Shown here: positions 3,080-53,716 of the stretch, in pieces | Layout of the letters: every line of letters begins with the position of its first letter | How positions within the stretch are numbered: the first letter of the stretch is position 1 | Assembly (NCBI RefSeq): GCF_024521635.1 | Contig: NW_026250405.1 | Coordinates: forward strand, 248,001 to 312,000 | DNA from: Tricharina praecox | Lineage: Eukaryota | Reading direction: 5' to 3' | DNA length: 64,000 nt | Position numbers and translations under genes: made by a program | Notes under the pieces: generated by a model | Told to the model about the DNA's origin: nothing | The model's database searches: none | What the model saw: the letters and a program-made list of their open reading frames with translations, nothing else

Positions 3080-3200
3080 CACCGCAGAGGAGAGACCTTG
3101 TTGAGACCTGGTGGACCTATGTGTTATGGAGAGCAGATCTAGACCCGATGCGGTCGCTGAACGTTGAAATGTTTTCTGTTATTGGTTTTCTGTTCGTCTT
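3080..3200 (-). repeat. Dispersed relic, inverted copy of 14190-14305
   Basis: Shared AGAAAACATTTCAACGTTCA(G/A)CGACCGCATCGGGTCT...CTCCATAACAC...CCACCAGGTC...CAAGGTCTC. Confidence 0.8.
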
Positions 3201-10640: not shown

Positions 10641-10642
10641 TA

Positions 10643-11400
10643 CCTTCCAAAAGACCCACGACCAAGTACGAGAAATGTTCCGGTGTGGATTTGTGAGTTC
10701 CGCACAGCCACGGGCAGCCAGCGCCGGAGGTAGGGAGGGGGGGAGGTGGGGGTTGTTCGGAAACAAGACCTCGCCCAGGTATCGAGCCGGACTGGGTTGA
10801 CAGCAGTATCATCCTCTCCCGTCTCGGTGTGTCTAATTAGGTTGGCTGGTATGGCAGCTTCAAACTGCACACACCTGCGCGTGGGAGGGCTTCGTGAGAG
10901 AGTAGCGCGTTTGTCGCTATTCCTCGCTGCGGAGATGTGTTCATCGGTGCTCACTCGGATGTCGAGTGACGCTGTTTGATGTCAAATGTCGACACCTTGC
11001 AATGTAGCGGTGTTTGCTGCGAAACAAAATTCTGAGTCGCGGCTAGTGCGCTAGAGGTGGTTTCTTGGAATTCCACCAGCTTAACCTATAAAACCCTCCT
11101 TTCCTCCCAACTCTTCCTCCCATTCTCCCTCCTCTCTCCACTCATTAACTTCTTCTCATTCTTTTCCGCCCAGCACTAATTTGTGATTCATGCCACTGAC
11201 TTAGAAATCCTCCTCCCCAAGTTATACGCGTATAACGTGGCTTACTACCCCCCCACGTTATACGCGGAGGTCGTCTTCCTTTCAGAGCAAAGGTCATATC
11301 TCCTGGCTATGCATGAGTGAGATGCAGGCGCCATTGGCCAAACGCTGTTGCTCTGGCCGCTGTGCGAGACAACGATATTTGACCCGTTTGTTGGTTGTGC
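10643..11400 (-). repeat. Inverted copy of the 41.9-44.4 kb repeat family, with an internal deletion
   Basis: Reverse complement matches 41870-42044, 42663-43095, 43950-43985 and 44281-44355. Confidence 0.92.
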
Positions 11401-21272: not shown

Positions 21273-24200
21273 TTAGTCGAAATACTTCAAGCCTAAGGAA
21301 TTTTGCTTGCTCACCCTAAATCCACCCAACATCGAGTTGACACTCATTCCGCCAGAAGACTGTCCCTGCTGTTGCTGGGGCTGCGGCAACCTGACGCCCT
21401 GGTTTTGCGGAGGGGGCGGCGCAGGAGTGTATCCAGCACTGGCAGTAACCCAGTTCTCGCCGCTACCCTGCTGCCACACATTCTCGCCGATGGGAACCCC
21501 CACTCCACCCCCGATGACACTCTGGTTCCACTCCTTGCGCTGCTGGTGCAAGCCGACGTCGACACGTCCTCCCTTCATGGCCAACTCTTCGACACCGATG
21601 CGGAGACGCTCCAACACCTCCATCAGGCCTCCGACGACATTTTCGCTGAGGCTCCGGCATTCGTCGCCGACGCGTTTCAGTGCACCAGGAAGACGCTGCT
21701 TCACTCCCTTCATGCAGGCCGCTGCGGTGGCAGCGGGCGCCGTGACTCCGTTGGCCCGGGCATGCTCTTCGGCGACTTGAATCGCGAGCTGCGCCTCGAC
21801 CACACGGACGGCGGGAGCAGATCGGAAATCCATCGCCAGCTTGATCAACGCAACTATCTCACCAAGAGTGGAAACGGCTTCAGCGAGAGCTTGAACGTTC
21901 TCCTGTGCGACCGTGTAGGAAGTCGGCGACTCGGCGTTGGGAAGGGGCAGCGTGTTCTCGTCGAAGAACTTGCGAAGCAATGTGGGTTGGATCGAGGGCG
22001 GGAACTGCCACACAACACCCCAGACAGCCTCAAGGACTTCGCCGTAACGCTTGCGCAGACCTTCGACGACCTGCTCGCCGACACGGTCAACGCAGCTGCG
22101 GTGTTCCGCGACCCGCTTTCCGCGCTCGATCTTGCTCCGGATTTGCCGCTCCTGCTCATCGATCCAGTAACGGCGCTCGGCATCCGCGGCACGCACCGTC
22201 TCGCCAGCCTGCAGAAGCGGACCGACGGAGATCTGAAGGTAACGGGCGTTTCGCTCGGTAACGAGAGACTGAAGGACGTGTTCGTGCTGCTCCATTGTGA
22301 CGTGAAGCTTGTTGAGGAGATCGATAGCTTCGAGCAGGAGATGGTACTCCAGTGCCGTTCCAGTACCTCGGGTATCCTGTGCGGTGACGGTAAATAACCA
22401 GTTCTTGACCTCCTCATACCACCGGCCACCGAGATCCTCGAGCTGCGTCTTGACCTCCTTGTAAGCCACTTCGACGTACTCGTTTTCGAAGATCGAGTAG
22501 ATCTCGGAATCGAGCTCCATCTTGTTCTTGGCCTCCTCGTGCTCGAAAGACTCCCGCATCCGCTCGATATCAGCAAAAGTGTAACGACCACTATTGTACG
22601 CGGTGGTGGTATGGCTCTGGTTCAACTGGGCGCGTTTCATGGCATTCTGCTGGAACACATTGATCCGGTTATTCGTCTTCTGCTCCAGCATCTTTCTCGC
22701 GTTGTCGAGGTACTGGTCAACGGGTGCCTGGTTGACAGCCTTATCCAGCGCAGCATATGCCATGTGGAGGAACGGCGGAATGTCTGCGATGATCTCCCCA
22801 TCGTCCTTGCTCTTCGCCTTCGTAAATGACAAGATAACCGCAGAAAGCCCCTTCGTGTCTACTGGGCGGTCCTCCTCGTAGTCGAATTCCTGCCGCTTGG
22901 GGAACGGGAAGGGGTACGGTGTTCCACCGGCAAGTCCCATATCAATTCTGTTCTCCGCCCGTGAGACGGAGGCCACAGTGGACGCATCATCCTCAAACTT
23001 GCGGCGGGTACTGGGGTCGATTCGGACAGCGGTAACATGCGGCATAGGACGCGGCATGAGGAGCTCAAGCTCGACCTTGGTGGCTGCGGCAATCTGCTCA
23101 ACGGTGGGCGTTGGTGAGGGTGTATCGTCGCGGTAGTTGTCCGGAGGTTCGGGCATCCCACCATAGCCTCCGTGAGAAGATCCGTGGTGGCTTTGTGAGT
23201 GATGGTACTTATCGCTTCCGAACTCGTCCAGACCTCCCAAATTGGGTGGCGGTGGCAGTGGCTGCATTCCCTCGTAGCCGACGCTATTTCCCTGGTGTTT
23301 CTTACCGTGGTAGGCATGTCGGGGCTCCTTTGGTTCTGGGGGTGGTGCCCTCATCGCCGCAACTTGACGGCTCCGTGCAACCTCCTCCAGGCCGGCCCAA
23401 TCCCGGTAGAGTCTCATCCGTTGATCGCCCAAGAGACTCAATTGTTCCTTGCTACCTGGCGCATTGTAAGAGTTCATCCTGAGGTTCTCGGCCTTCTCGG
23501 CAACGATGATATCCTCGGTCAGATACATGGCAAAGTTCAAAAGCGCATTGACATGAGTTGACGGAAGGCTAGGAAGGAGATCTGAGAATGTTGCAAACAA
23601 CGCTTCCTGGCTGCCGATGCCTCTCTTGGAATGATCATGGTGTTGTGTGGTCCCCGGTAATGGCATGTGCGGGATATCCGGAGTCGGACTCTCGCTAGGG
23701 TTAGTGACATTCTCGACATCATCCGGCACTACCGCTTCGAGAGGGCTAGCGGCGTGAGACTGGGGCTTCTGATAGTTCTGCGAGTAACTATTACCACCTC
23801 CATTCTCATATCCAGTGTAGACTGGGTGGGCCGGCATCTGAGGCGGGTCGGGTTTCCGCACAGGCGGTGCAGGTCCAGAGACAGCGGCAGTGTCGTCTAC
23901 CCATTGACCACGCATCACGCTCTCCCTCGTACCAATGTTTCCAGTAGGACTCGTAGCTTGAGTGAGAGGCGAAGTGACGTGACCACTGGGGAATCGCGGA
24001 TTTGACGTTCCAGAGTTCCCAACGGATGGCGGCGGGACGGGCTTCGAGTACAAGTATCCCCCCAACCCGACTTCTGCGGGACTTCTCTGCTGTGAACCCG
24101 GCTGAGCCGGCGATTTGACGAACTTCTCAGGCGAGCGACCAACATTGCCAACATTGCCAGCAGGCGGCCGCCTTAGCTGTTGCATCTGCTGGGTTGGGTT

Positions 24201-25104
24201 GACGCTGCTCTGCTGCTGATTCTGCTGCCCGTCCAATCCCAATCCCACACCAGACCCTTTTTCTTTCCTGAGAGGCGCGCCAGTCTCGTCCTTGTCCCCA
24301 CCTCTCGGTCGGTATTCAGGAGGAATCGGATCATCGCCCTCGGCGCTACCGGGTCGTTCCATCTTGCCCAATCCACTGGAACCACTAGAACCACGGGGAC
24401 GTGCACCCAAAGGCGGGGGTCCCCGGCTCTGCTCTTGCGTCTTCCGTGTTGGTTTCCGAGTCAAGAACCCGGTCGGAGTTCCGCCATCATTGGCCTCCCC
24501 ACGAGTATCCCCCACACTCTTGCCCATCAATGGAATTCCCATAAACCCCTTATATCCTGGGGCACCAGCTCCGAGGGCGATTCCTTTGATGAAGCCTCCA
24601 GGGGGTCCTCTCTGACCACCGTTATCGCTAACGGGTGTGTCGGGCGGAGGGCAGGACGGTGCCGGCGGAGGAGCCGGCCCGTCACTGACAGGTGTGAGAA
24701 GCGGCGGCATCATGTACCGCTGGGGCTGCGGTTGGTTCATATCACGGCCATGCTGGGGAGGTGAATCAGCGTTGGGATGAGGAGGTGGTGATGGCGCAGA
24801 TTGCTGTTGATGATATTTGCGGGGAGGCGAGTATGGTTGTTTCGGGCCGGAAGTTCCGGTTTGTGAACCGTGTGGCGAACCATTGTATTGCGAGCCCCGG
24901 TGCGTCCGCTCTTGTGGACTTCTTTGACCCTGTCCTCCTCGCGCTTGCTGCTTCGGACTGTTTCCTGAGTTGGAACCTTGCCCAAAGGACACCTTTCGCT
25001 CTCGCTCTTGTTGGGGGCTTTGTTGCTGATGTCCTGGCGAACGCTGGCCTCCGGTGTAAGACTGAGAAGTCTCTTCCTCTTGTTGCTGATACCGCTGCTT
25101 CTGC

Positions 25105-25148
<44 letters not shown>

Positions 25149-25149
25149 A

Positions 25150-25184
<35 letters not shown>

Positions 25185-27422
25185 CTGTTGATGCTGCTGC
25201 TGTTGCGGAGGACGGAAGTTGGAAGGCTCATTCTTCCGAATTGACAGCGGGCTCGTGACACGCGGTGCGGTATCTCGCTTCTGCTGCCCAATCGGGGGCG
25301 GAGGTCCATAGCCGGTCATACCACCCGGAGAAGTCGAAGCATTAACGAGGTGTCTCTGCAGGTGCTGCTGATAGCTGAATGCCGCCGCACGCTGCAGTTG
25401 CTCCTGTTGTTCCCTTTCACGCTCGCGATCCGCACCATCGAGCGGCTGCTTGGGCGGGATGGCGGGAGGTGGAATCTGCGAATAACCAGAGATATTCGAC
25501 TGCGGGGATGCATTCGAATATGGTGGTGTCTCGTGATATCCGCCGTACCCACCGCCGCCACCACCACCATTACCACCATTACCACCTCGTTGCTGTTTTG
25601 GCTGTTGTTGCGATTGGTGCGACGTGTGAGTGTGTTGCGACGCATGGATAGCATGGGAATGATGGCTCTGTTGCGAGGCGTGGGTAGCAGTTGAGTGCAC
25701 ACTCTGCTGAGACGGTGGTTGTGTAGGTGGTGTCGGGCGCCCGATCGCACTTGGCTTGTCAGACACCTCGGCCGGCGACATGGTGGACGGGTTACTCCGT
25801 TGGCTATATGACCGTCCCTCGCCGATACTACCCTCCTGCAAACTCCGGATATCGCTAAAGCTTCCCGGTGACCCGGCGAGCTGCTGCTGCTGCTGCTGTG
25901 GCGGTGGTTGGCCATACGGTTGTTGGTCATGGATATCAGGCGAGAAGGGATTAGTAGAAGACTTTGAACCTTGGTGTTCGTCCTCATCGTCGTCGTCGTC
26001 TTCCGGAACCCATCCTGCCGGGAAGTTGGCCTCCATAGGTGCTCCCTCGCCATGCTGGGCCGGCTGTGCCTCTCTGTGATTCGAGTACAGGGATGGTTGC
26101 ACTCCTGCAGGAGGCGGCTGGAACGGTTGCGCGACTGGGAATGCGGGGGTCTGATTAGGCGCAGCGTGAGGTGAAGTCGACAGATGAGAAGGGAAATGCA
26201 CCGGCTCCGGAGCCCCAAACTGCGAGCTGTAGCTCTGCGTCATGTGGGAGGTCACGTTGCTCGGCGATGGGCCACCAAACACTGGGTTTGAGTGGTGAGA
26301 TGACGATAACTCTTGCTGCCTAAAGCTGCCCGAGAGTTGGCCGGTCGTAATCGACGGCGGCGACTTGAGCGAAGATTGCTGTTGCTGCGACTGCTGTTGC
26401 GGTCGCGATAACTCAGCATCATACGAGCGCGATGGGATGGGCACCGGATTGCTGTAGTTGTGGTTCGGCGAGTTTCCCGAGGTCATGTCCTGGGAATTGC
26501 GGTTCTGCTGATGCTGATGCTCATTGTAAGACCCGCGAAGCTGGCTGTCGCTTGCGGGCTGCGAGAATTGCCGTATTGGTGAACGCTGCGGTTGAGGAAC
26601 ATCGAATGTTTTGGCATTTCGGTCCAACACGGGAGGCGGTTTTCGCCGATCCAAGAAGTCGGCCGAGCCGGGCTGTTCATCGTACGATCCATGCTGGTTA
26701 TTATTATTGCCACTGCCGTTGCCGTTGCTAGGCCGTGAGGAGTAATGGGCGGAGCTCTGGGAGTGTTGTGACAGAGTCTCCGGGTCCCGCCGCTGGTACT
26801 GCGGAGCAACTAGCTTAGAGAACTGGACCAACGGGGAGGTGTCGGGGGTTGGATCTACTTCGATGTGCCTCTGCGACTCCAGATCAAATTGGGTCTTCAG
26901 TGCTTTGTTCATCGGTTTGCCGAAGGGCTTGGTCGGGGAATGGTGCTGTTCGTTCCGAGCTTCATCTTTCTCCGGTTGCTGCTGTTGCGCTTGGACATCG
27001 TGCTGAAAGGCGTGGTGTTGTTGGTGATGCGACTTGTCCTGGTCGGAAGGGCCGCTATATCCGCGTTCATCGTACTCCAAATCCTCATACCGGCCATGAT
27101 CCTCGCCGTCGTCATCCTCGTGTTCCGGCTCATAGCTACCATTATCACCGTACTGTTGATAGTGGCCATCCACCTCCTCCTCTAACGGATGTGGCTCGCG
27201 GTGGTGGTGAGTATTGTTGTGGTGTGCACCATCGTCCTCGGTATTGCTATCTCCCCGCTTACGATTAGGAGGCGGGGGAGCACTCAGGCCGCCATCGTTG
27301 TCCGCGCTTCCTCCAGCACCACCACCACCGCTTCCACCATGTCCAGTTCGCTCCAACTCATCAGTTTCAAATTGCATAAACCCTGGTTGCGAGGATGATG
27401 ATGTGGGTTGCACTGTCGTCAT
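21273..27422 (-). CDS. 2049-aa hypothetical protein: long Q/P/S/G-rich disordered region with poly-Q, followed by a helical C-terminal domain
   Basis: Uninterrupted 6.15-kb ORF; CAG/CAA tract ~25105-25205; amphipathic helical region in the last ~500 aa; splice acceptor in the 5' UTR at 27509. Confidence 0.9.
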
Positions 27423-30400
27423 TACTTTGCGGTACAGTTATCGGTCGGTAATGATGGGACGTGAAACGATGAAGCGAGGTTCTTCCGGGGTTGCGTGGAA
27501 TTCGGATTCTGGAAAGAAGTAAAGTGTGTTAGCCGGCAAGCGAATCTTCGGATGTTTCCTTTCCCCATGCCAGCCACCCCCCAGCCCCTCACCCGCACCG
27601 CAGACCTTCGCCTTCTCGACGCAAGACCACAACCTCCTTGCGCGACAACAAGCCTCCCCCAGAGATCTACATCTAGATGGTAAAGGAAGAAGAGGGTAGG
27701 AGGAGGTCTCACATTATCTCCTTCGTAGTGTCCGTTATGCGACCGACGTGGATAGATGCGTAGCGTTGCGAAGACGGACGTGTTTATCGGTATGTAGATG
27801 TATGGTCGGCGGCGGCGTCGTAGAAGCGTCGTAGAAGCGTTCGTGCGAGCGTACGTGTGTGATGTGAGTTGTGGGAGTGTTCGTTAAGGGTGAGAGAGCA
27901 CGTAGGATGTAGTAGTAGTAGCAGGGCGCTGAGGGAGGGGGGGCGTTAAAGGTCTGTGTGTCGCTGCGCTGTCAGAACACCACCTCCTGTCTTCTCTCTT
28001 GGTTTCCTTCACTCGCTGGTTCTCTCATCCATCCATCCATCCCATGCATGTTCTTCAGCGGGAGTCCTTACCGTAAACGTATCGCGCGCGCTTCACACTC
28101 TCTTCACACTCTCTTCTCTTCTCCGAGGCCTCTTCTTCTTCCGTCTTTTTCTTTCTTTCGTAAATCGTCTTCGTCTCGTCGTGTCGTCGTGTCGCTCGTC
28201 GTCGACCACCGGCTCCGTCCCGACGTCACAAGCGGGGAGTGGGGGAAGAGAATATGCCGAAACAAAAAGAAAGGAAACAACGTCGCTGCTCGTGACGAGA
28301 AGAAAAAACAAAATGATGGATAAAACTCGGTATAAGTCAAGACAGCAAGTTCTAAACTTATCGCATCCGAATCCGAGTCCCCGTTGCTGCTGCTGCTGCT
28401 TCTGCTGCTGCTGCTATCCTTCAACACCGGTCGTCCGCGGGCGGGTGCGATGCGGAGAGGAGGTGGGTTTGGGGTGGAGGAGTCGATGCGAAGGGTAGGA
28501 AGAGGGGCGGGGGTGGTGGTGGATGGGGTCACTGCTACTACAAAGCGACTCGGGTACGACTGGACTCTGGAGTCTGTCTGGCATGGAAGGTGGAGCAGCA
28601 CACGCAAAATTAATCTCTCGTCTCAACTCACTCAAGCCCGTAAGAAGTATGTTCTCCCTGGTCGCTGTGAGCATTGGATGGCTACTCTACTTGGGTGCCT
28701 ATAGTACAGTACGTAGCCAGTGAACTGTGCGGATGTTTCCCTTCGCTCTTCTCTGCCCTTCTCTTCTCTTCTCCCTCTAGGTATGCTTCGTCCGACCTCT
28801 CTCTTTCTCTCGTAACGGCTGCCTCCGGAGTCCAAGTGCCAAAGTCAAGCCACATGCCCAAAAATAACATCCTACGAAACGCGCAGTTCACTCAGCCAGT
28901 CGCGAGTCGCGACAGCACAGCTCAGCTCAGCACTCAGCGACAACTGTCGAGCACCCGATGGAACATCCGCGAAGCACAAGAGAAACCAGAGAAACCAGAG
29001 AAACAACCCCTCCACTGCGGTACTATACCCACCCAGTTTCCCATGTGCTCTCGAAGATTTCTTCGCCGTAAGTAGAGTACTCTATTCTCCAAAGTGAGAC
29101 CAAAGTACCTCTAGCGCATCCCGCCTCCTCCGAAGCGAACGAAGGGGGGATCCGGTCGAGGGATGGAGGGTGGATGGTGGAATCTGGATGGATGAGTTGG
29201 CATAGTGCGGCGCGGCCAGCGACCAATCACGAGCAGCCGCTAGTTACTCTAAGTAGGGTATCCCGTCGCTCTTGCATCCAGATTGAAGGAAGGAAGCACG
29301 AGTCTCGTCCACAGGCCGGGCAGTGCGAGGTGGCGGGGGGAGGAACTGACTCTGGCAGTGGCCGTGGGAGTGAGCCTCAGCATCAGCGGGAATAAATCAA
29401 GATGCAGAGCAGCAAAGGCGGTGGGATGCCGTCATTCCGCATTCAACGTAACTAACGTGCGAGGAAAAAACTGGCAGAAGTGATTCTCCATCTCGTCGTC
29501 GCCGCGGTGATGTGCTGTCTTTGCTGTCGTGCTGCTGCGTGCTTCTTCGCATGATGGAAGGGCGGAAGGGAGGGAAGGCGGACGAATCTCATCGACGGCG
29601 ACAGCGGCGGCGGACGGGCGGGGCGGGGCTAGGGTACGTAGGGTGGCTTCAACTGCTGCATGCGCCTGACTCGAGCGCACGCAGGTTCCCGCCGGGGAGG
29701 GGAAGGTCCTGCCGACGCGAAATACCCCTGACTGGAGCGGGCTTGTAAGCACTCTGCATATCTATATAGAAAAGTAGATACATCGAGGGGAGAAGACTCT
29801 CAGGACTGAGGAGAGGCGAGCAGCCGAGTGATGAGGTCTTTGATTCTCATGCCCGTGCCGTGTGCGATGTCGTGGATTCGATGATGCCGTGGTTAGTAGT
29901 TATTTGTGTCGGCGACTCGGTGACGGAGTCGCATCGCCGCGAAGGTCCTTCACGCGGTCGGTCGGTCGACTTGCCGAGCGAATTCGATGCGCGCCGTAAG
30001 GTTTCATCACTACATGTCACTCGGTTGAGGTACAGGAGAAATTACACAAGTGAATTGAAACAAGCACTGGGAAAAGACAGTAAACCAGTAGAGTAAAGGA
30101 GGCAAACGAACGAATCGCAAGGAAGCTGTTGCATGTTTCCAGCCTTTGGGGGATAATGTTGATTCCGACCGGTCAGCGGAGAGTCTGGCGGTCAGAGGTC
30201 ATCGCCTGAAGCAGTGAGGACGTGGAGGACCATCTGGCAACTTTGGTAATAGGTAGACGACAGACCGATTGTATCTGAGAAGAGAGAAAACGACGATGTA
30301 AGAAAAAAAAGTGACACCTGTGTTCTTCAGGTGTCCTTCAAGAACCTCGCGAGTTGAATAGCGAGAGCGAACAACGATGAAAAGCAACGAAAACAATGAA

Positions 30401-38400: not shown

Positions 38401-41400
38401 GAGCTTCTCACCACCGTTTGGACTCTCAATAACAACGATCCATCGTTCGGAAAACATGTCATCAAATTCGAATGCACGGCTAAATCTCCGCAGGTCTGGG
38501 AAACCGATGAGAACGGCCAGGCGTATCACAGGTACATTGGGTGTTACCAGGACGGGGATCCTATTCGACGGATGGACACAATAGGGCATTCTACGGATAC
38601 GAATACCAACTTGGAGTGTATGAGATCATGTGCCAAGAAGGGCTCCGGTGTATGGCCTTTCGTGGCGACTGAGTATCACCGGGAATGTTGGTGTGGAACG
38701 AGACTGCCGCCCAAGAAAGTCTCTGATTCGCAGTGCAACTTTCTGTGCTCCGGAGACTACAACCAATACGTATGATTACTCTCGAAGAGTCACTTTATAT
38801 ATGCTAACGGTAATAGTGTGGTGGTGCAGGTCAACTCATGAGTCTTTTCTACGACAGACGTTTGTGGACGCCGAGCAACATCACAACTACGACTTCAACA
38901 AACCCGTCTGCAACACCTACTCCTAATCCTTGGAAATATGTCGGATGCACTTCTGAAGGGACTAACGGCCGCGCTCTCACCGGTGGTGGCAAAGCCTCGC
39001 CTGATATGACGCCCAAAATCTGTCAGGATCATTGTAAATCACTCAGCCAACCTCTTGCCGGTATTGAGTATTCGCAAGAGTGTTACTGCGGCGCAGCTCT
39101 TTCCAATGGCGCAGCTCTCGGATCGAACAACTGTAACATGGAGTGTGCCGGAGATGTTTCGCAGATCTGCGGTGGACCTGGGGCTCTGAGTCTTTACAGA
39201 TATGACCTAGATTCCATCCCTTCGAACGGGTCAGTTACCGCAACACCGACTGAGCCCCCAATGTCATCGTCTACTGTCTCGCAATCTTCGATCGCTACCC
39301 CAACCGGTGATCACGAATATTTAGGATGCGCAACCGAGGGGATCGGAGGCCGCGCACTTACTGGAGGCTTCAAGTTTTTCGACACCCTTACACCGGAGGA
39401 CTGCCAGAATTACTGCAGATCACTCTCACTTCCTCTTTCTGGCATGGAGTATTCGAAGGAATGCTTCTGTGGGTCTTCCCTCGCCAACAACGCCAAGTTG
39501 GGTTCACCGAACTGCAAAATGCCGTGCGGTGGCGATGGAAGCAAAATCTGTGGAGGGCCCAATGCTCTGAGTGTTTACCGTTTTGTTCCTAAGGACTCTG
39601 GTAACGCTACAACCTCCAACACCTCCGGAACCGTAACCCCCACATCACCATCATCGATCATGGTATCTGCTACGCCCACAGCCAACCCGAACTACAAGTA
39701 CCTCGGCTGTATAACCGAGGGGACCGGTGGGCGGGCGCTCACAGGCGGTTTTCTGTTCTTGGACACTATGACGCGCCAAAAGTGCCACGACCATTGCACG
39801 ACACTCCAACTCAAGTACTCCGGGCTCGAGTATTCGCAGGAGTGTTTCTGCGGCAGCTCCCTGGAAAATGGTGCTGCGCTGGGTTCTCCAAATTGCAATA
39901 TGCCGTGTGCAGGAAAGCTGGACGAGATCTGTGGTGGACCGGACGCGTTGAGCTGGTTTGAATACGTGCCGGTGTTGCTGCCCGAGCTGGGTTCTTCATC
40001 GGTAGCGGGGAGTTCGGTGGATGTCTCGGGGACTTCGTCGGCTACGGGAGTCACATCGTCAACTGGCGCTCCTTCGGCAACACCCCCTCCAGAACCTACC
40101 GAGGTGGGGTCCTCAGCGGATGCGTCTTCGGTACCGGCATCGTCATCCGCAGCACCTACCGTTGTGGAATCCTCAGTGGACGCGTCTTCGGTACCGGTAT
40201 CACCCTCCGCGACACCGACGGAGGTGGAATCCTCAGCCGATGCATCTTCTGTACCGGCATTGTCATCCGCGGTCTCGTCTTTCGCCTCAGGCGAGTCAAC
40301 GATGAGCTCAGAGACCGATGTGGTATCCTCTACAAAGGTCGTTCCTTCGTCCTCGGCCGATGCTTCAGCCATAACGCCTTCGCTTACAGAGGCTGTACCT
40401 TCGGGCACAGAGGCTGTACCTTTGAGCACAGAGGTTGTATTTTCGACTACAGAGGCTGTACCTTCGACTTCAGACCAAGACGACTTTCCGTCGGCGTCTA
40501 TGTCTTCTTCGGCAGAGGGTGGGTCGCAAACAAATTTGGCGTCTTCTACAGAGCAAATAATTTCATCCTCGACGGATGTACCTTCGGAAACGCCTTCCGG
40601 TTCATTTTCGGAAATCGAATCCTCAACGGATACGGCATTCTCCACAGTGGACATCTCATCTTCCGTGGTCGACATGTCTACGGCGCCTTCTGCTACAGCA
40701 GGTGTGTCTTCGTCCGCAATAGATGTTTCTTCAGCACAAGAATCATCCTCCAAACAGCCGACCACGGTCCCAGAAATTTCAACAATATCTTCGGACGAAC
40801 CATCTATCTCGCCCACCAAGGCCCTTTCATCACCCACGGAAGATACATTGGTAGCCCCCTCAACATCACCCACACCAGACATTGCAATCATCACCACAAC
40901 GTCTTCTCTGGGATTGGACCAATCCTACCTCGGATGCGCCAGTGAAGGCATTGACGGCCGGGCACTCCCGCTTTACACCTTTCAGTCGGCAGTGCTGACA
41001 CCGGCGCTCTGTCAAGAGCGCTGTAGAAACCTCTCGCTCCCACTCTCTGGCGTTGAGTATTCACGGGAATGCTACTGTGGCGTCGCACTCTCTCACAACG
41101 CCACACTCGGCTCGAGCGGATGCACGATGCCATGTGCCGGAGACTCGAGCAAAACCTGCGGTGGCTCCCGCGCACTCTCGGTTTACAACTGGACATCGTG
41201 GGAGCCTGCACCAGAGCTCTTCGGATGGGCCGATCTGGGGTGCTGGAGCGAGGCGGTTGGTGAAAGGGCGCTTATGGGCGATAAGGTGGTCATGAAGAAT
41301 ATGACTATGGGAATGTGCGTTGATTACTGCGATTTGAGGGGCTGGGAGTATGCGGGTGGTGAGCATGCGGGGGGATGTTATTGCGGGGACTCGCTGGCAC

Positions 41401-41507
41401 CAACAGCACAGCAGTTGAAGAGGGAGAAGTGTGGAATGCTGTGTGCGGGTGGTGGAGGAGCGTGTGGTGGGAAGAGTCGGTTGAGCGTCTATATGAAGGA
41501 GGAGTGA
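35430..41507 (+). CDS. Large secreted WSC-domain protein: signal peptide, PQQ-like beta-propeller, Ig-like domains, six WSC domains and a Ser/Thr-rich linker; about 7 introns
   Basis: NHNMDP, FYAQPLIYTP, GKHHQRPA, GGGIWMSGGG, DKDLGTSG and GKTGK motifs; six (Y/D)xGC...CxCG...C...CGG units; GT-AG introns with CTRAC join the ORFs; 16-nt microexon 35600-35615. Start may be 35415. Confidence 0.9.
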
Positions 41508-41629
41508 TACCTAAGGGGCCGTGGGACCTCGATGAGACTTGCTTGTACTTTTCGGTGTAATACTGCTTTTTGAATGATTGGTAGAATGGACACGAAATGG
41601 ATTTTGATAGCACGATGAGATCGGTTCAT

Positions 41630-44470
41630 GGGGGTGCACTCGGAAGATTCATAAATGCGCACTCGGAAAAAAGGACTCGACGATGGGAGCATCGATGAGA
41701 GCATCAACGGGAGCAGCGATTCAGATCGAGATCGAGATCGCGACCGCACAGTACCTGACGCCAAGCGATGGGCCAGCTGTCGGAGAAGATATAGTTCTCC
41801 CGCGAGCATGTACGCGTGCCACATCGTACAAACGCCCACTGCTACCGCCCCCAGCAGCAACCAACCCGCGCACCAAGTCAAATGTCATTCTCTCGCACAG
41901 CGGCCAGAGCAACAACGTTTGGCCAATGGCGTATGTATCTAACTCATGCATAGCTAGAGGTTAGACCTTTGCTCTGAAAGGAAGACGACCTCCGCGTATA
42001 ACGTGGGGGGGTAGTAAGCCACGTTATACGTGTATAACTTGGGGCGGTAGTAGACCAAGTTATACTTCTTTGGTTATTTATTTGCTCTTCTGAAACCGTC
42101 TGTAGCCCGGTTACGGAGGCATGGGCCTTGGCCACGCATGTAGCACGTCTCTCACATGACATGCATGGCCAGGAGGAAAGACCTTTGCTCAATGCTCTCT
42201 CACAGGATTTCACAGCAAAGGAAGAAAACCTCCGCGTATAACCTGGGGGGATAGTAGGCCAGGTTACATGCGTATAACTCGGAAGTCATATTTTCTTTGT
42301 TTTTTTCTTCCTCGTCAACACGAAACCGTCTGTCACCCGGTTTCGGAGAGGTCATCCACCAGGAGCAAGTCGGCTGTCACCCGACTTGGACTCCCGGGGT
42401 AAAGGGGAAAGAACTTCGCCGTCAGCAGAAGAGAAAACCCCGTCCTTGGATCTTTTCTGCTCAGCCTCGAAGGTTGGATCCGTCTATTGGCGCTGCAACA
42501 GTCGACTTTGTAGATCAGTTGCACGGATCCCTCAGTTCCTCGCTGCTACGGCTGAGCAGGATAGCTCTGTAAGGTTATCCTGGAAGTAAAAAGCGGGAGG
42601 GGAGGGAGAGGGACTTACCTCGAGGTTTGAGCTCAGGTGGAAGGAAGGAAGGAAGGAAGGAAGGGGAGGAGGATTTCTAAGTCAGTGGCATGAATCACAA
42701 ATCAGTATGAGAAGAAGTTAATGAGTGGAGAGAGGAAGGAGAATGGGAGGAAGAGTTGGGAGGAAAGGAGGGTTTTATAGGTGAAGCTGGTGGAATTCCA
42801 AGAAACCACCTCTAGCGCACTAGCCCTGACTCAAAAGTTTGCCTTTTAGCAAATACCGCTACATTCCAAGGTGTCGACAGATATTTGACATCAAACAACG
42901 TCACTCGACGAAGGAGTGAGCACCAATGAACCCATTCCCACAGCGAGGAATAGCGAAAAACGCGCAAACAATTACTGATTAAACAAAACCAAGAAATGAT
43001 AGCAACAACTACTCTCTAAGTGAAGCCTCCCACGCGCAGGCGTGTGCAGTTTGAAGCTGCCACACCAGCCAACCTAAAGAGACACACCGAGACGACAGTT
43101 GGGCGGGGGGGTGCACGAGGAAGCTTCATTCATTCGCACTCGGAAGCAATGAATAAACCAAAAAAAGAGAACGTCAACGGGGGAATGGTGATAGTTACTT
43201 CAATCCGAATAGCGATAGACCGGAAGTCGTTTTAGAAGATCATTCATCATTCCTCGACACAGGGGGAAAGTGAAATTATGGCTCTGAGTGAGGGCTTCCG
43301 AGATGGACTCTAGGGAGAGGAAGGTAAGATAGGTAGGCGGAGACGTGTGAAAAGTGGTTCTTTGACGTCTGTTTGTTTCGTGGGTACGAACTCTATCATC
43401 TGTCGTACCCAGACGGAGGGCTTGGTAGACGAGGTTTTTGCTAATGACCATACTACTGTAGATATGCTGAATGCGAGTGATATTAACCAAAAAGAAGAGA
43501 GCAACAACGGGAGCAGTGATCTCGATCTCAATCGCGACCGCACCGTCCCCTACGCCGAACGATGCGCCAGCAATTGGAGAAGATATAGTGCTTCGGCGAG
43601 CATGCACGCTTGCCACATCGTACGCCCCCCCAGCAGCGTCCAACCCACACACCAAGGTCAATGTCGTTCTCTCGCACAGCTGTCAGAGCAACAACAAACG
43701 TCACTCGACATACGAGTGAGCAAATATGAACACCTTCCTTCAGCGAGGAGTTTATGTGTCTAGCGACAAACGCGCAAGCACTTACTGATTGAATAAATAA
43801 AGATAAAACAAAAAAAGAATAGCGACAAACGTGAGATGGAGGCGAGCACGTTTTATACTTTCCATACGCCACGAGCAGGCGTTTGCAGTTTGATGCTGCA
43901 ACAGTAGCCGACCTAAAGAGACACACTGAGAGGAGGGAGAGTGATACTGTGGCCAATCCCGTCCGGCTCGATACCTGGGCGAGGATCTACATCTGTTCCG
44001 CTACTCGGGAGTCTCATCCTGAATCCTGATGACGATTGAGAGGAATATCACCATCACCGCGCCTCACTTTTGCATTGAACCACAGCCGTAACGATATCCG
44101 AACATACTTCTCGTTGATTCGTTGCCCAAGTGTCTGATAGGTAGAAGCGCACCTTTTAGCCCCACTCCCGAGTATACTAGAAAAGATCCAGTAGAAGGAG
44201 TGCCTGATTTATTTCATACTACATACTTCTTTTCTTCGGGAACAACCCCTACCGCCCTCCCTCCGGCGCTGGCCGCCCGTGGCAGTGCGAATCTCACAAA
44301 ACCACACTACGGTTCCGAACATTTCTTGTACCCGGCAGTGGCTTTTTCAGAAGTTAGGTTCATACATAGTCACTGTCACGACTCTTAAAACCGACCACTG
44401 CAGATGCTCGCCGCACACAGTCAATGTCGTTCTCGCGCGCAGCGGTCAGAACAACAAAATTTGGCTTGGG
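41630..44470 (+). repeat. Cluster of degenerate, partly tandem copies of an unclassified repeat family (coding relic plus non-coding module)
   Basis: 41632~43110; 41705-41915~43505-43692; 42895-43095~43695-43930; 41875-41925~44420-44466. Confidence 0.88.
41918..42893 (-). other. Structured non-coding module: TATA box, pyrimidine-rich leader, putative intron, multiple hairpins
   Basis: Minus-strand TATAAAA 42779-42773; GTAAGT...ATAAC...ACAG 42618-42567; stems at 42457-42559, 42359-42397, 42321-42345, 42236-42269, 42032-42065 and 41996-42029; no convincing ORF. Confidence 0.6.
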
Positions 44471-45744
44471 TGGTCATTCCTCCCACTCATGGCCAGAATG
44501 AAAGAGTTATTGATAGAATATGGAGTACTGGAGGCCACTATACTTCGTAGCCCAGCCGTGATTGAGTACGATGAACCAGAGACACTGGAAGTAACCAGGG
44601 ATCAGAGCCGCTGAGATTTCAAGCAGCAACCCCGCTAGCAAGTAAGCTAGCCATAGGTTTGGCCGACAACAGCGCACAAGCCGCGTCAGTAGTTGTAACT
44701 TAAATATTCTGTTCTTTCAATCACGTCGTCCGTCACCGGTTTCGGTGCCTCTATCCATCCGTGCGGTGCGTTATCTGAACTATTCGCCGCCCGCACGCTA
44801 TATGTGATACCCAGCGAGCCCTAGCGTTTTATAGCCTGTGTTGACTGACGTGCCGACACAGAGCGATTGCGTGAATCTGTTTGCTTCATGAGAAGTCACC
44901 CGGGCGATTTCACGAGTGAGAGTGTGTGGAGCTATGTATTTTCCGGAGTAGGGGAGTCATGAAGGAGAGTGAAGATGGCAGGCGAGCTGGAATTTATGAA
45001 GACCTAGGGGGAGTAGGAGGGTATGGAGACTTCAACGGACTGTAAACTGTTAAGTGAAACCTCGAGCGGGACTACAGGAGACAGCAGGTGTGCACAATTT
45101 GGCATGATTGGAAACGGTCAGACGGAATATGGCGAAGATAAAAAAAAGCTTCAGCTTGAGATTCGGCATCGGCCATCGATATTGTATTCACACATGCTTG
45201 GGTGGCTCTACTTAATGACTACGTGTTCTGGCTGCGTTGGTGATGTAACTCTGTCAGAGGTAGACGTCCGGGGATGAAGGCCGGAGAATGGTCTTTCTAC
45301 CGGAGCACCTCCAGCCGCTGCCTGGACTGGGAGGTTCTTCACGAGATCCATGGAACTTTTTACATACGGGTAGCGGCAGACTGGCTGCGTCGTCGAGGCT
45401 ACAACCAAGCAACAGATTCGTCTCTCTCTCTTTCCCTCTAATATCCTAATAATGTAAAAACAGCTGACCACCCCATACGATTCCCCTGGTTCGCACTCCA
45501 ACGGCTCTTGTAGCTCGCGCGATACGCGATAGTAAGGTGCAGCGCCCCCTCCGACACCAAAAACGCCTCCCAGATTCAAGGTTTGCCCCCCCCTCCCCCC
45601 CGGCCCCCCCACGCGCGCACAAGTACATACCTACATACGCAGACAACAGAATCTCTAGCGCCCATCCGAAACCCATAGACAAAATGCGATACCTCAGACA
45701 AAAGAAGAAACCCGTAAGCTCCCAAACCACAACCAACCACCTTT

Positions 45745-47259
45745 TCAGATTTTGATGCAAACTCCGCTCTCCAGGATCATCTTGGAAACATTCACCACCG
45801 AGAAGATCCCCACAGCAGCCAGAAGAGTAACCGTCACTGCGAGGTACGGCATCAGTGTCTTTTTCCCACCCAAAATGTTCACGAATGGCAGGAATATTGC
45901 CAGCGCCTGTCCAATAGCGAGCCAACCGACAACAGAGAACCGCTGGACAGAAGTGCTCCCAGCCGCTTTGAAACCTGTCATGACGTATATGATGACGTAG
46001 GGGACAATCATTGAGAGAAGCCACAAGATGGAATATAAAAACAGCATTGCAATCATGAAATATCTGTATTTCGGCGTTTTCAACGATCTTAGTATCTATG
46101 GCGTAACGTTATCAGTAAATGAACTTTCTCTGGGAGTGAGGCATATCCGATCGTAACGTACTCTCTCGTAATTATTGATTTTAAAATCCGCCGGTGGAAT
46201 GTGTAGCACCCCTACCGCACCAATAACTTTATCCTGTAGTTCCTTATCAACCTCGCGGACACCTAGTACCACCCGTTCTTTTCCGATTTCCTCTCTTTCT
46301 ACGAAGGTAGTATCATAGTGGGAATCTGCTCCAAAGGAACTATCTGGAGGGGTACATGGACAATGTGGGCCGCCGTAGTGTAGCAGGTACATATGAGTGT
46401 ATCGTGGACGCATTATCGCCGCGAGAAGGTTGAGGAAGGACATCCACAGGTACGGTATCACCGTTAGTCCATATGCTGCATATCCGTATCGGTCGATCTG
46501 GACTCCGCGAGCGTCGTATAGCTCCTTACTCGCAAAGAAGATCTGTGCGATGGCGGCGATTCCTTGTACGAAGCTGTACGAAGCTGCGATCTCCATTTTA
46601 CGCATAGAGTTGACATCGTCCCCTAAGCCGTGTGCGTGCCCCTCGCGGGGGATGGGGGCAATGCGATAGTAAATCTCTCCAGTATCGGTACGTCGACGCT
46701 GAAAGAGGCTTCGGAAGGAATCAAAGATCCGGCGGGGAAAGGAAGCGCGCGCTGCTAGGTTGGTTGGGTAATAACCGTGCACCTGTGCCGAATCATGGAA
46801 CCCCAACGCACTGTGGTTGCACGATAGTTAGCCTTGCCTGGGATTGCCTTGCCACATGGAGAGCTGGTGTTCGGTGGATGAAATTGATACATACAAGTCG
46901 TTTAGCTTCATATTCGCATCCGCGAAAGCAGTCGGCACCACACAATCTTCACCTTTGAACCCCACAACTATACAGAGAGCCCCGCAGCGAGTAGCGCTTA
47001 TAAAGGAGCTTTCCAGGAATGCCGGCGGCGACAGCACCATGCCCAGCGCCCGCAAAGTGCCCAACAGCGGCATGAAAAGAGAGCCGACCGCCCAAGCAAG
47101 TGACACACTGCTGACTGCTCCCGGTTGCAACATGATTGTGAATACGTGCGTGACGTAGTTTAGCAGGATGAATTTCACGACGCTCGTCCAGGTCGCATCA
47201 GTGCATATCGTCTCGCTGTGAGTACCTTGGCGAATCGTTGTACCGTTGACGGTGGTCAT
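45745..47259 (-). CDS. Uncharacterised fungal multipass membrane protein, paralog 1, 3 exons
   Basis: ETICTDATWTSVVKFILLNYVTHVFT and RGVQIDRYGYAAYGLTVIPYLWMSFLNL; two GT-AG introns at the same positions as in paralog 2. Confidence 0.85.
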
Positions 47260-47545
47260 GATTGTGTTTGCGAGCAATGGACGACTTTGGCTAGGATCGG
47301 GTATGTAATAGTATTGTTCGTGGTGTGACTGCAGGATCTGTATGTATAGGAAGTCAATATTCTCTAGCTCGTTGAGCGGGGGAATCCTCATACATATACC
47401 CATCATCTGCGACCATTGGTAGTCAGCATACCTCGCTCGTGTATCATCATTCCGGTCAGACAGCACAGCTGAAGGAGTGCGAAGCTTAACGGGGCACTTC
47501 GAATGGCAGCTACAGACGCGAGACATTCCTAAGTACGGTATATGA

Positions 47546-47756
47546 CCGTATCAACTCACTTAAGAGGTGATGTCTCTGTTCTGTTTTTCTAGCGCTTGGC
47601 GCACTAATTATTGCCCGAACGGAAAGTAGCTAAACCAAACAGAAATACACATAATTGTCTCTCATATCAGAGGCCAAGATTGGAGATATGTACCTATAGA
47701 AAGCTTACTGCCAGATATGGCAGTAGAACTATTACCTCTTAAGTGAGACATTACGG
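47546..47756. mobile_element. 211-bp MITE with TIRs related to the 9646-10640 element
   Basis: CCGTATCAACTCACTTAAGAGGT ... ACCTCTTAAGTGAGACATTACGG|TA; left flank reads GA rather than TA. Confidence 0.7.
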
Positions 47757-50059: not shown

Positions 50060-51597
50060 TCACAACTGGACGCAGACTCCCTTTTCCAGAATCATCTTAG
50101 AAACATTCACCACCGAATAGACTCCGACGGGGATCAGGAACGTGATCATGATTCCGCTGTAGATCGTTTTAGCCCGGCTTTCGCCGTACAAGCGCAAAAA
50201 CGGCAGGATGAGTGCCAGAACTTGTCCCGTAGCGAGCCAGCCGACGACAGCGAAGCGCTGGGCGGTGGTGCTCTCGGCTGCTTCGAAGCGCGTCATGATG
50301 TATATGACGATGTACGGGATCACAAGCGAGAAGGCCCATATGACGAGCTGGCCGATCTCCTTGCACAGTGTGGCCCAGTGCTCAAGCACGGGCTTAACCG
50401 GTATTCCGTGGTGTTTCTTGAGGCTCTCCAGGAAGGGTTTGAACTGGAACACATCATCTCAATCCGTCAGGATACATGTTCATTCCGGAGGTGGTGGCTG
50501 ACCGCGTAGCGGTAGAACTCGCACCGTATAGTAGGGCCTCTCTTTGAGAGCCTCCGGGCGGATGTATACCACTCCCACCGCACCGACAACAGAATCCCGT
50601 AATTCTCCGTCCAGTTTCCGCCGTCGTTCGAGCTCTTTCCCACCAACCTCGTGTATGTCGACATGCGGCGGCTCTTTCTCCCCTCCCTCGTTATCGCACG
50701 CCGGTGGCGCCACTGCGTCTCCGGCGGGCTCGCCATAATGCACTAAATACACATGCGAGTACTGCGGCCGAAATATCGCCGCAACGAGGTTAAGGAACGA
50801 CATCCACAGGTATGGTATGACCGTCAGCCCGAACGCCGCATAGCCGTAGCGCACGACCTGGTCGCCGCGCGAGGCGTACAGCTCCTTGCTCGCAAAGAAG
50901 ATCTGTGCGATTGCGGCTGCGCCCTGCACCAAGCTGTACGAATTCGGGATCTCCATGTTTTCGAGCTGTAGACCCTCGTGCAGCGGCTCTATCCGCGCGT
51001 CCGGTGGGATGCGCACGAGGTGGTATCGCGTAGTATCGTCGTCGGTAGGGGCCGCGCCGCGGCGCTGGGCATCGTCCCGAGGCTTGCGAATGGTGTCGCA
51101 TACGACTGGGTGGTCTCCGTGCACGTGCTTGAAGTCATTCTGCCACTCGTTCCACTGGCTGGAGGGATTGAGTGAGGTTAGCTGCTACCACGTATCGAAG
51201 GAGGCGCCGGTGTGGCAGCCACAACGTACAAGTCCTTCAGGTTCATCCCCTTTGCCGCGAACGCTGTCGGTACTATCACGGCACCGGCACCATTGCAGCC
51301 AACAACCATGTAAACGGCGCCGCATCGGAGCGCGGTCGCACACGAGGAAAGGCGAGCACTGGGGTACGACATGATGACGGTGATTGCCCTCCAGGTGCCC
51401 GCAAACGGCATGAACAGCGCCGTGAGCATCCACGAAAAGATCTGCGGATTCCGTGCTCCCGGATGCTGCATGACCGTGAAAACGTGCGTCACGTAGTTCA
51501 GAAGGATGAATTTTGTCACGCTGGTCCACGTCGCATCCGTGCATATGGTTTCTCCCTGACTGACGAACCGGATGGTTGGAACTTCGACGGGTGCCAT
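50060..51597 (-). CDS. Uncharacterised fungal multipass membrane protein, paralog 2, 3 exons
   Basis: ETICTDATWTSVTKFILLNYVTHVFT, RGDQVVRYGYAAFGLTVIPYLWMSFLNL and VVNVSKMILEKGVC. Confidence 0.85.
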
Positions 51598-53716
51598 CGT
51601 ATCGTATCGTACGTACGAGCGCAAGTACGGAACGGACGGCTTCAGCGAGGATGGGTGTGTATAGCGTTTGCGGTGTCGGCTGGAAGCTGCTGCTGCTGCT
51701 GCTAGGTTCGGAGATGAGCGGTTGAACTCTTCCGCTAGCTGTGGATAGGTATCCCCATATACTATATACACCGTGGGAAGCGGCCGATGTCTCGGATTGC
51801 CTCGCTGGATGAGCGTTGCTTAGTGTGCCCAGTGCGGGACAGTGTAAACCTTCTGGAAGAACATGTCGAACAGCGGATGCATATGCCAAACAGGCACCTG
51901 GGTTGTTCCTCCGGGCTGTTGGAGGGACTTTACTGGCCCTGATATGTACGATCGCCAATCAAGAGCAGCGAAATATGGAGAGATAAATCACAAATATTCG
52001 CATTACATATATGAGCTGGCTACAGACGAAAAGGACGCCCCCGGGAATGTAGTGCAGTGCAGAGCGTCTGACAACGGTCCTATCGTAAGCGCGGCGAAGG
52101 TGCAGTCGCGACCGTCACTCGAATCAAGTTCCTAGAGTAGCTCCCTGCAGTATTGCGTCGGCCTGGGCCTGAACTGTGCTTCTACTCTTCCGTGCCACGA
52201 TTCGATACTGGTAGGACACGTGATGATTGCACCCTGCATGAGATGAGCCCAATCAACTCCAACTCCAACCTCACACGAATCACGAGTAGTCTTGACCATG
52301 GTTCTGCGTGATCGCGTTCGAAGCGCCTCTTTCGATCCGAAGCCTGGTTTGCGTGGCGACCATAGGCTGCATCCCGCAACACCTGTAGACTATCGGCCGG
52401 GAGTATCCGAGTATTTCGGTAACGACTCTGTAAGCCTCACTGTACATATGATACGTATTTGACAGCGCCTGGCGCTACATTAACATTCGTCCCAAGAAGG
52501 GGTTTTTCGCTCACCTGGTCGGCCAGTTGATCAAGAGAACGACTCGCCTCAGCGAATTCCCGTCCGGATGTCCCGGTCGACCACTTGCAGGACCTAGCCT
52601 TGGGACCTCTGAGGTTCAAACAGTTCAAACTGCCGCTCTAGAGTCTAGAGGAATGAGTCCACCCTGCGCCGCTGCGCATGAAGACGGTGGGCGACTATCA
52701 AGGGGTAGGTAGAAGGTGTGGCGCTGTTGACGTCTTCTTGGAAGCGAAACGGCGAAAATGAAGGATGATTGAGAAGTTAAGGTTGTATTCAACTTCGAAG
52801 AGCCATCTCATATGGCTCTCCCCCGCTACCTACAACGTTCGGTTCCACCCGATCAGGTTAGTCCGGCTATCGCCGCTATTCGGATCCACCGATTCGACTA
52901 GCCCCTCCTCGTATCTTATCTAATCTTCTATCTATCCTCCATATGCTCCTCTCGTGGTGGTGGTAGACAACCGCTGTCCGCGGACCGTCGGATTAACCAG
53001 TAGATACTAGACAGTCGCCTTGTTAATATGTTTTGTTGATACCTGTGGGGAAACTGTGGTCCAGGTACTCTAATAGTTCTACTTATCGCGCGATCTACTT
53101 GTACGGTTGGTAATAGTTATGTTTCAGCGGTAGCACTCAAGCAAGTATGCAAGTACGGAAGCTCCGCGCTGTTTCGCGAAGCCCGGCGGCGGCAGTATTT
53201 AAACAGACAGGCGCGTTACGAGCGACGACCATGCGAGCGGCTTCCGATTCCCTACCAACTTCTTACGTACATGATACCCAGGCATCTGCAGTGCGGTATA
53301 TGTATGGTACGGTACTCGGTACTGCGTGAGATGGAGGACGTACTCCGGAGGTACCTAGCATCCAGGCATATCCCGACAACGACAAGGCCAGAGAGAGATC
53401 ACCGGTATATGGTAGTATCTTATCGGATAACCTAGAATTCACGATCGGCAGGGCCCCAGTGCCTGAAGGTTTAAGGCTGGCGATGGTACTTCCGAACGCC
53501 GGAAATAAAAAAGCCGGGCTTGTTTTAACTTATCGTGTAACTGTTACAGCAGGCGGTCCCGGTATTCCTTCCGCGATGCGCGGAGCATGCGGAAAGGTTC
53601 CGACATGCCTTGAAGCGACGTCGCGGCAATGGGTTGGGATTGATACCTGTATGCACGAATGGAATAATTTATCCGTCTTTGGGAATCGGAAGAGTGGATA
53701 TCCCGCTGCTGATCGC

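Follow-up and report, generated by a model that had tools for sequence, protein, structure and literature searches.

Among the closest described counterparts of the repeat considered here are the Helitron and Replitron transposons, together with a replication process that reshapes palindromes. Helitron1 elements have 5'-TC and 3'-CTRR termini and insert between A and T (PMC5148889), and fungal Helitron2 elements carry an asymmetric terminal inverted repeat (TIR) and a 3' hairpin, with the 5' terminus recurring in inverted form 20-51 bp before the 3' terminus (PMC5148889). Template switching during replication, a mechanism known from yeast and other genomes, homogenizes the arms of inverted repeats and yields compensatory changes (PMC8604942, PMC8794818), and inversion of the spacer is another of its products (PMC8604942). 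The window analysed here, a stretch of 64,000 nucleotides from Tricharina praecox (contig NW_026250405.1, positions 248,001 to 312,000 of the forward strand, position 1 being its first letter), contains a group of hairpins near 42 kb, inside a repeat of which a second, inverted copy lies near 11 kb. On balance, these hairpins probably constitute a double-palindrome module in the interior of a fungal repeat that is multi-copy and protein-less and is itself, most likely, a mobile element of the non-autonomous kind; in the best reading the palindrome module is cis-acting or self-maintaining.

Three complete hairpins are present on the plus strand, at 41996..42029 (hairpin 1), 42032..42065 (hairpin 2, located 2 nt 3' of hairpin 1) and 42236..42269 (hairpin 3), and both the sequence and a pattern search place them exactly where the original prediction, derived from the sequence alone, had put them. 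Each hairpin is 34 nt long, with an 11-bp stem and a 12-nt loop, which in hairpin 1 is G-rich; the stem of hairpin 1 measures 12 bp when the flanking C/G is counted, and the stems extend to 12-14 bp when flanking CG/CGCG is included. The stem position 8/27 is G-C in hairpin 1, T-A in hairpin 2 and C-G in hairpin 3, so that the predicted three Watson-Crick pairs at one stem position and the 12-nt loops throughout are borne out. At the base of the hairpin 3 stem two mismatches occur. Hairpins 1 and 2 form a doublet in which a single 11-mer occurs four times, its orientation alternating and its copies separated by 12, 2 and 12 nt. Hairpin 3, which belongs to a second tandem unit, and a truncated fourth hairpin that has lost its loop (42272..42291, plus strand) are copies of hairpins 1 and 2, respectively, generated by a tandem duplication of approximately 240 bp (41977..42348, plus strand; 41977-42118 and 42217-42348 are 71% identical over 146 columns). 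On the minus strand an identical copy of hairpin 1 is found at 11230..11263 within the inverted second copy of the repeat, also as predicted. The flanks of this copy had been described as diverged, which is incorrect, as 41877-42047 and 11383-11212 share 91% identity over 172 nt (95% over 91 nt). Next to it, a remnant of hairpin 2 (11215..11227, minus strand) comprises the first 13 nt, i.e. the 5' arm and two loop bases, and stops at a deletion junction.

Within the window the hairpins are specific to this repeat. The pattern search identified 4 sites (8 strand-matches) against 0.00 expected from 100 dinucleotide shuffles, and a looser search added, at 42272, solely the fourth hairpin in its truncated form. 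The three hairpins were also used to construct a covariance model, which was run over the full 64 kb with filters off and returned 14 hits with E<=10, eight of them being the four known sites on both strands, while the other six have E>=1.5; since the model finds no other copy in the 64 kb, the hairpins are confined to the repeat. The folding energies of the hairpins as single-stranded DNA range from -5.9 to -9.2 kcal/mol (z-scores of -3.0 to -6.1), and the folds are predicted on both strands, for DNA and RNA alike. In all four copies the loop has the same orientation relative to the element, and the loops are strand-asymmetric, the minus-strand loops being C-rich with TACTAC or TACTAT. Other palindromes are abundant in the repeat, including an imperfect one at 42129-42171 with 13-bp arms (92% complementary) and a 17-nt spacer. 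Two further hairpin candidates were rejected: what looked by eye like degenerate hairpins in the third copy (from 44420 on) scores E values of 0.19-3.7, similar to the reversed control, and a second hairpin type with an apparently common CTGTCAC loop over different stems (42321-42345 and 42366-42388) has a loop that is private to the 42-kb copy.

The extent and multiplicity of the repeat are apparent from soil-metagenome contigs. Five runs from two studies contain parts of the stretch, and the contigs of four of these runs (238, 190, 46 and 7 aligned contigs) were aligned at 80% likeness, with 42632-42673 skipped as repetitive in contig placement; the listed variants, joints and ends referred to below are 40 of the 449 variants, 15 of the 45 joints and 22 of the 208 loose ends. 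The high-copy core spans approximately 41877..42925 (plus strand), where the summed contig depth, which does not equal copy number and may include relatives, reaches 110-325 over 41905-42914 and falls stepwise on either side, versus about 7 in the unique flank (41400-41992), which is covered by one contig of 100% identity. Among the variants listed, single-position variant letters occur in up to 13-15 different contigs of run X1, and among the ends listed, loose contig ends concentrate at 41877-41881 in all four runs. The joints listed include skips of 241-254 nt, representing single-unit copies without the tandem duplication, and several internal-deletion forms. In a run of the second study (X5) the matches are confined to 41880-41920, with 6 contigs on both strands. 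Together, the depth plateau, the variants and the joints characterize a dispersed family of many copies whose left boundary is sharp. This boundary is marked by a conserved head of approximately 40 nt (41877..41916, plus strand), which recurs at 43655-43695 and 44420-44457 on the plus strand and at 11346-11383 on the minus strand; the 42-kb locus thereby contains three co-oriented heads (41877, 43655 and 44420) within 2.6 kb. The hairpins lie about 120 nt inward from the boundary.

Comparison with the other contigs further indicates that the hairpins of the family are in better condition than those of the 42-kb copy. Among the variants listed, no majority variant affects the stems of hairpins 1 and 2, and the majority changes in their vicinity are 42018 G>A, at the last loop base, and 42031 T>C, in the spacer. 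The changes 42267 C>T and 42269 T>C, present in most other contigs (again among the variants listed), remove the mismatches of hairpin 3 and make its pairing perfect, and in two or three contigs insertions of 7 and 6 letters after 42279 and 42282 restore a full-length fourth hairpin. On these grounds the master copies are taken to be better paired than the 42-kb copy. The common form of the family has well-paired hairpins, and resident copies lose them. The number of hairpins varies, with some contigs containing a single hairpin; slippage between two direct repeats of 36 nt would be expected to give such variation. One chimeric contig joins the 5' arm of one hairpin type to a 3' arm of the second type. 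Two further differences were noted among the variants listed: position 42376 is C in nearly all other contigs that cover it, and many other contigs have a CA insertion after 42152.

From these observations the canonical unit seems to have a single doublet, composed of two hairpins of 34 nt and located about 120 nt inward from the head-marked boundary. None of the 90 open reading frames (ORFs) scanned (18 long ORFs and 72 further ones, picked from 275 of at least 90 aa) matched a reverse transcriptase, integrase, transposase, Rep or helicase family, which agrees with the earlier remark that the window shows no Rep gene; because no mobility protein family is present in these ORFs, the repeat is regarded as non-autonomous. 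In the 42-kb copy, duplication in tandem of a piece of about 240 bp produced hairpin 3 and the truncated fourth hairpin, and the 11-kb copy is an inverted duplicate that lost 622 bp, starting in the loop of hairpin 2, via GGGG microhomology. Propagating (master) copies may need a foldable palindrome, and their hairpin arms would consequently stay complementary. The palindrome might serve as the recognition site for a mobilizing protein that is supplied in trans and acts on single-stranded DNA or on the RNA of the element, with replication template switching probably contributing to the homogenization of the arms. Resident copies would then decay, as the mismatches of hairpin 3 and the truncated hairpins may illustrate.

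Several results, besides the limits of the summed contig depth, weigh against a functional module in a mobile element. A shuffle test of covariation on the three sequences is not significant (91/500 shuffles as good), the control itself being weak with three sequences only. Between the tandem units the stems are identical at 18/22 positions, the loop at 10/12 and the remaining aligned sequence at 79/94 (Fisher p=0.73), and the stems and loop thus display no extra conservation compared with the neighbouring repeat sequence. As the stem and loop identity does not exceed that of the rest, nothing at the 42-kb locus demands a function, and a 'conserved loop', which the original prediction had emphasized, needs no special explanation there. 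The two long copies in the window share several hundred bases past the plateau, and the true repeat unit may, judging from this shared sequence, be larger or composite. No significant TIR was detected between the head and the candidate tails (204, 238, 255 and 83 of 2000 shuffles as good), and no convincing target-site duplication (TSD) at either long copy. The pentamer TCAAA is present at both ends of the core (41878-41882 and 42891-42895), and the core reads TGTCA...TGACA (41883-42890) with TCAAA on either side; GTCAA(A)TGTC (GTCAAATATC in the 11-kb copy) is found at each of the four heads, even where a right end is missing, and the presence of the same bases at all four heads undermines TCAAA as a target duplication or as part of a solo long terminal repeat (LTR). 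Since the features are individually weak, the termini are unlike those of FoHeli (PMC5148889) and Replitrons are unreported in fungi (PMC10288648), no element class is assigned.

The change at position 8/27 bears most directly on what maintains the stems. This is the only one of the 11 stem pairs that covaries (1/11), and 8/11 pairs are invariant. In a neutral random-site simulation, paired change has a probability of 0.016 for hairpins 1 and 2 and of 0.095 for hairpins 1 and 3, with a product of 0.0016. The paired change is therefore nominally unlikely under independent mutation, and some process keeps the arms complementary. The covariation that was originally proposed concerns one stem pair and is nominally unlikely to have arisen under the random-site model (p=0.0016) but not significant in the shuffle test (91/500). 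The arms could be kept complementary by selection on a foldable palindrome in propagating copies, or by replication template switching. If the latter acted alone, together with recent common descent, the hairpins would be functionless palindromes, carried as neutral passengers, with their perfect arms and the 8/27 change explained without any role. This account, although unlikely overall, agrees with the lack of extra conservation of the stems and loop, with the invariance of 8/11 pairs, by which most of the pairing is explained by descent, with the decay and truncation of resident copies, and with the variable hairpin number and the chimeric contig of mixed arm types. The required mechanism has been described in yeast and other genomes, and quasi-palindrome correction likewise produces perfect arms and paired changes without selection (PMC8604942, PMC8794818). 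In contrast, perfect 11-14-bp stems have been kept or restored in most other copies (among the variants listed), and the richness of the repeat in other palindromes hints at a property of the family. In addition, quasi-palindrome correction is a mutational process that predicts occasional spacer inversion (PMC8604942, PMC8794818), yet all four loops are co-oriented. The locus provides a clean example of palindromes inside repeats that mimic RNA-like covariation.

The original prediction had also proposed, as one possibility, that the hairpins act as a rolling-circle-type origin or terminus nicked in the loop. Whereas the non-autonomous multi-copy fungal element of that interpretation is upheld by the depth plateau, the variants and the joints, its rolling-circle part is not supported: the hairpins are situated about 120 nt inside the boundary, Rep is absent from the ORFs scanned, viral and prokaryotic relatives and Rfam matches were not found, and the loop shows no greater conservation than its flanks. 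Viral contigs gave 0 matches to the hairpin pattern and 0 to the head motif, and prokaryote genomes gave 0 matches to the hairpin with the loop core. Pattern matches in metagenomes were obtained at 3 loci, two of which have the same sequence; these have AT-rich, bacterial-looking contexts and unrelated loops and are attributed to chance, as about this number is expected from a 20-base pattern. A single breakpoint falls in a loop, that of the 622-bp segment missing from the 11-kb copy (42045..42666, plus strand), which begins in the loop of hairpin 2; the others that were seen are at hairpin edges. GGGG is present on both sides of the junction, indicating that this deletion was microhomology-mediated. 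The last GGGG of a (GGAA)n microsatellite within the repeat (42638-42666) forms the end of the deleted segment. A conserved loop nick motif beside a Rep gene and iterons, as in a rolling-circle origin, was not found, and the idea of such an origin is possible but unsupported.

Comparison with known origins and short hairpin elements leads to similar differences. The hairpins resemble the origins of pMV158/pE194 plasmids and CRESS-DNA viruses in the size of the stem (about 11 bp) and of the loop (about 12 nt) and in the TACTAC of the minus-strand loop, TACTAC/TACTAT being putatively similar to the pMV158 nick site. They differ in that a NANTATTAC-type nonanucleotide and an adjacent Rep are absent, that they are chromosomal and multi-copy, and that viral contigs yielded 0 matches. 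Fungal mitochondrial double-hairpin elements and GC-cluster palindromes likewise have two adjacent short hairpins, a variable hairpin number and a mobile or unstable appearance. Those elements stand alone, measure tens of nt and occur in AT-rich mitochondrial DNA, whereas the doublet described here is embedded in a repeat of about 1 kb, in a nuclear-type region (54.6% GC) with nuclear genes around it.

More similarities exist with HUH transposons. It is conceivable, though distinctly unlikely, that the repeat is a rolling-circle element, i.e. a non-autonomous Helitron2- or Replitron-like element mobilized by a HUH Rep protein, in which the hairpin doublet is a Rep-binding site or a loop nick site. 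Such an element would account for the single sharp end with its conserved head of about 40 nt and no TIR or TSD, for the three co-oriented heads in 2.6 kb, including a mini-unit that consists of the head and the right-hand region only, for the sequence that copies have in common past the plateau, as read-through would give, and for TACTAC/TACTAT within the minus-strand loops; hairpin recognition is, moreover, common among HUH enzymes (PMC10288648). Like the FoHeli/Helitron2 elements of Pezizomycotina (DINE/HINE), the repeat consists of protein-less multi-copy units with one defined end and without a TSD or symmetric TIR, and shares with them end-proximal hairpins, a candidate inverted copy of the 5' terminus that precedes the presumed 3' end by a few tens of bp, and co-oriented tandem copies (PMC5148889). 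An inverted copy (9/10) of the head's initial 10 nt is located near the right edge of the plateau (42880..42889, plus strand) and is followed by a small 6-7-bp hairpin (42900..42921, plus strand; z -1.06) that occurs in three copies (also at 43701-43719 and about 10950-10971), an arrangement that resembles the ends of fungal Helitron2 (PMC5148889). As an asymmetric inverted repeat of Helitron2 type, however, the match of 10-11 nt at 42880-42889 and in the 11-kb copy is not significant (255 and 83 of 2000 shuffles as good), the terminal sequences do not match those of FoHeli (TCAG...ATTTT; TGCCT...CTCCTGT; PMC5148889), the doublet is internal by about 120 nt rather than terminal, and RepHel is missing from the 90 ORFs scanned in the window. 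The canonical ends of Helitron1 are absent as well: the TC is preceded by G, not A, at 4/4 heads, giving no 5'-A|TC, and no CTRR-3' occurs in the approximately 40 nt that follow the small hairpin (42900-42921). This hairpin, at the edge of the depth plateau, is a candidate for the short hairpin that Helitron1 elements carry 10-12 nt from the 3' terminus, although the terminus itself could not be located here.

With Replitrons, which are Rep-only HUH elements, the repeat has in common short end repeats (TCAAA at both core ends, comparable to the short direct terminal repeats of Replitrons), a palindrome near one end, a right end with extra sequence common to another copy, and a size of about 1 kb, at which non-autonomous forms of Replitrons outnumber coding ones (PMC10288648). 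Conversely, the TCAAA of the repeat is 5 nt long and could be due to chance, the shared right-hand sequence extends over hundreds of bp rather than forming a short 'fuzzy end', no Rep is present among the ORFs scanned, and the reported occurrence of Replitrons is limited to plants, algae and protists and does not extend to fungi (PMC10288648). The sole breakpoint in a loop carries GGGG microhomology, and the ORFs that adjoin the repeats, inspected by eye as translations, look membrane-protein-like without HUH features, which further argues against a rolling-circle element. A more specific form of this explanation, which we consider very unlikely, is a fungal HUH Rep transposon of an undescribed kind, in which the strand-specific YYTACTAY loop of the double hairpin is a single-strand site bound or cut by Rep; with short direct repeats at its termini and right ends formed by read-through, such a transposon would be akin to Replitrons or aberrant Helitron2 elements. 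A family mobilized by Rep would, if real, carry greater weight, since the Helitron-like diversity of fungi is poorly charted, no fungal Replitron is known, and in-vitro tests of the mechanism would become feasible once the hairpin to be recognized is defined. The significance of the repeat is modest unless a Rep-bearing master copy exists; as an uncharacterized fungal repeat family it is nevertheless useful for repeat annotation. Criteria of TIR DNA transposons and miniature inverted-repeat elements pointed to neither class, the inverted repeats being not significant and no flanking duplication being present at either long copy.

The strand asymmetry of the loops, with UACUAC in the C-rich loops of the minus strand, also raises the question whether the hairpins function in RNA. 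The repeat would in that case be transcribed, for instance as an LTR leader or, on the minus strand, as the 3' part of a retroposon, and the stem-loops would be bound by a reverse transcriptase or packaging protein, a scenario that appears very unlikely. Viewed on the minus strand, the sharp boundary would be a precise 3' end, and the depth steps down towards the opposite end as 5' truncation would give; the stepwise depth profile is compatible with a short or long interspersed element (SINE or LINE) retroposon. The head of about 40 nt is conserved in the contigs of the second study and may be comparable to a shared LINE/SINE tail. TATAAAA on the minus strand (42773-42779; 11087-11093 on the plus strand in the 11-kb copy) is followed by a long CT-rich tract and lies upstream of the hairpins on the strand with the C-rich loops; TATAAAA with a CT-rich tract would be a promoter-like layout for filamentous fungi. 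Ending in TGTCA...TGACA and bordered by TCAAA at either side, the core looks like a solo LTR, yet the supposed TSD is common to all four heads, and gag/pol is absent from the ORFs scanned. Moreover, the sharp end lacks a poly(A) or simple-repeat tail, TSDs are missing and no reverse transcriptase is encoded in the ORFs scanned. Likewise, a search against the RNA families of Rfam 15, including tRNA, 5S and 7SL, gave 0 matches with E<=1 on both strands of 40500-45500, and the stem sequence is conserved rather than covarying.

Conservation of the stem sequence itself, beyond pairing, together with the occurrence of one 11-mer four times in alternating orientation at fixed spacings, could alternatively reflect sites for a dimeric DNA-binding protein. 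The inverted 11-mers would then be host cis-regulatory palindromes in a duplicated promoter. A CCAAT at 41922-41926 and TATA-like sequences are in accordance with such a role, as is the position of the 11-kb copy upstream of plus-strand ORFs that begin near 11.5 kb. A dimer that binds duplex DNA would, however, not need position 8 to be complementary between the arms, and the 42-kb copy faces the 3' end of a convergent WSC gene. In addition, no shared coding or DNA similarity was found downstream of the two repeat copies, and the copy multiplicity far exceeds that of the neighbouring genes. Host regulatory palindromes are accordingly the least credible of the explanations considered, and the double-palindrome module of a non-autonomous repeat is retained as the preferred reading.

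The second, inverted copy of the unit (10641..11397, minus strand) consists of the head, a short hairpin segment and a right-hand extension, and is an inverted copy of pieces of 41877-44356. A second tandem unit is located at 43107..43934 (plus strand), in which the head is fused straight to the right-hand region, without the hairpin segment. Among the copies in the window, homology 5' of the head is retained between the two tandem units only. Two hexamers, located just inside the head and immediately beyond the right end of the core, are AACAAC/AACAAC in the 42-kb copy (41910-41916 / 42893-42899) but AACAGC/AACAGC in the 11-kb copy (11344-11350 / about 10972-10978). This coordinated difference between direct repeats about 1 kb apart could result from gene conversion, independent insertion or chance.

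The neighbouring genes in the window are fungal in type and include WSC, MFS and GMC oxidoreductase genes; the Atlas clusters closest to the MFS transporter are entirely eukaryotic (100%), with Ascomycota as the most frequent group. The repeat is placed in Dikarya, probably Ascomycota. The WSC-domain gene (38817-41507) contains in-frame tandem repeats of 60 nt and 21 nt at 40075-40481. ORFs at 45.4-47.6 and 50-52 kb were considered as a hidden Rep and rejected, as their translations, judged by eye, resemble a membrane-protein family and have no HUH features. These regions correspond to paralogous genes at 45446-47550 and 50060-51958 (both minus strand), which are 4.36 kb apart, frame-broken or intron-containing, and 76% identical over 229 nt, and which encode a hydrophobic protein family without a Pfam match. 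At 21273-27437 (minus strand) an open frame of 2054 aa without a Pfam match contains a long CAG/CTG-type triplet array at approximately 25057-25221. Adjoining the end of the 11-kb copy, an element of about 1 kb (9644-10642) has 52-nt imperfect TIRs (81% complementary), with TA or TACCT on both sides as a possible target duplication, and contains a GCT-rich ORF. Finally, a tandem duplication with a period of about 1.19 kb (3661-4231 / 4850-5421, pieces 76-91% identical) and a 69-nt inverted repeat pair 11 kb apart (3141-3209 / 14177-14245, 84% complementary) suggest, from their sequences, the presence of further repeat families in the window.

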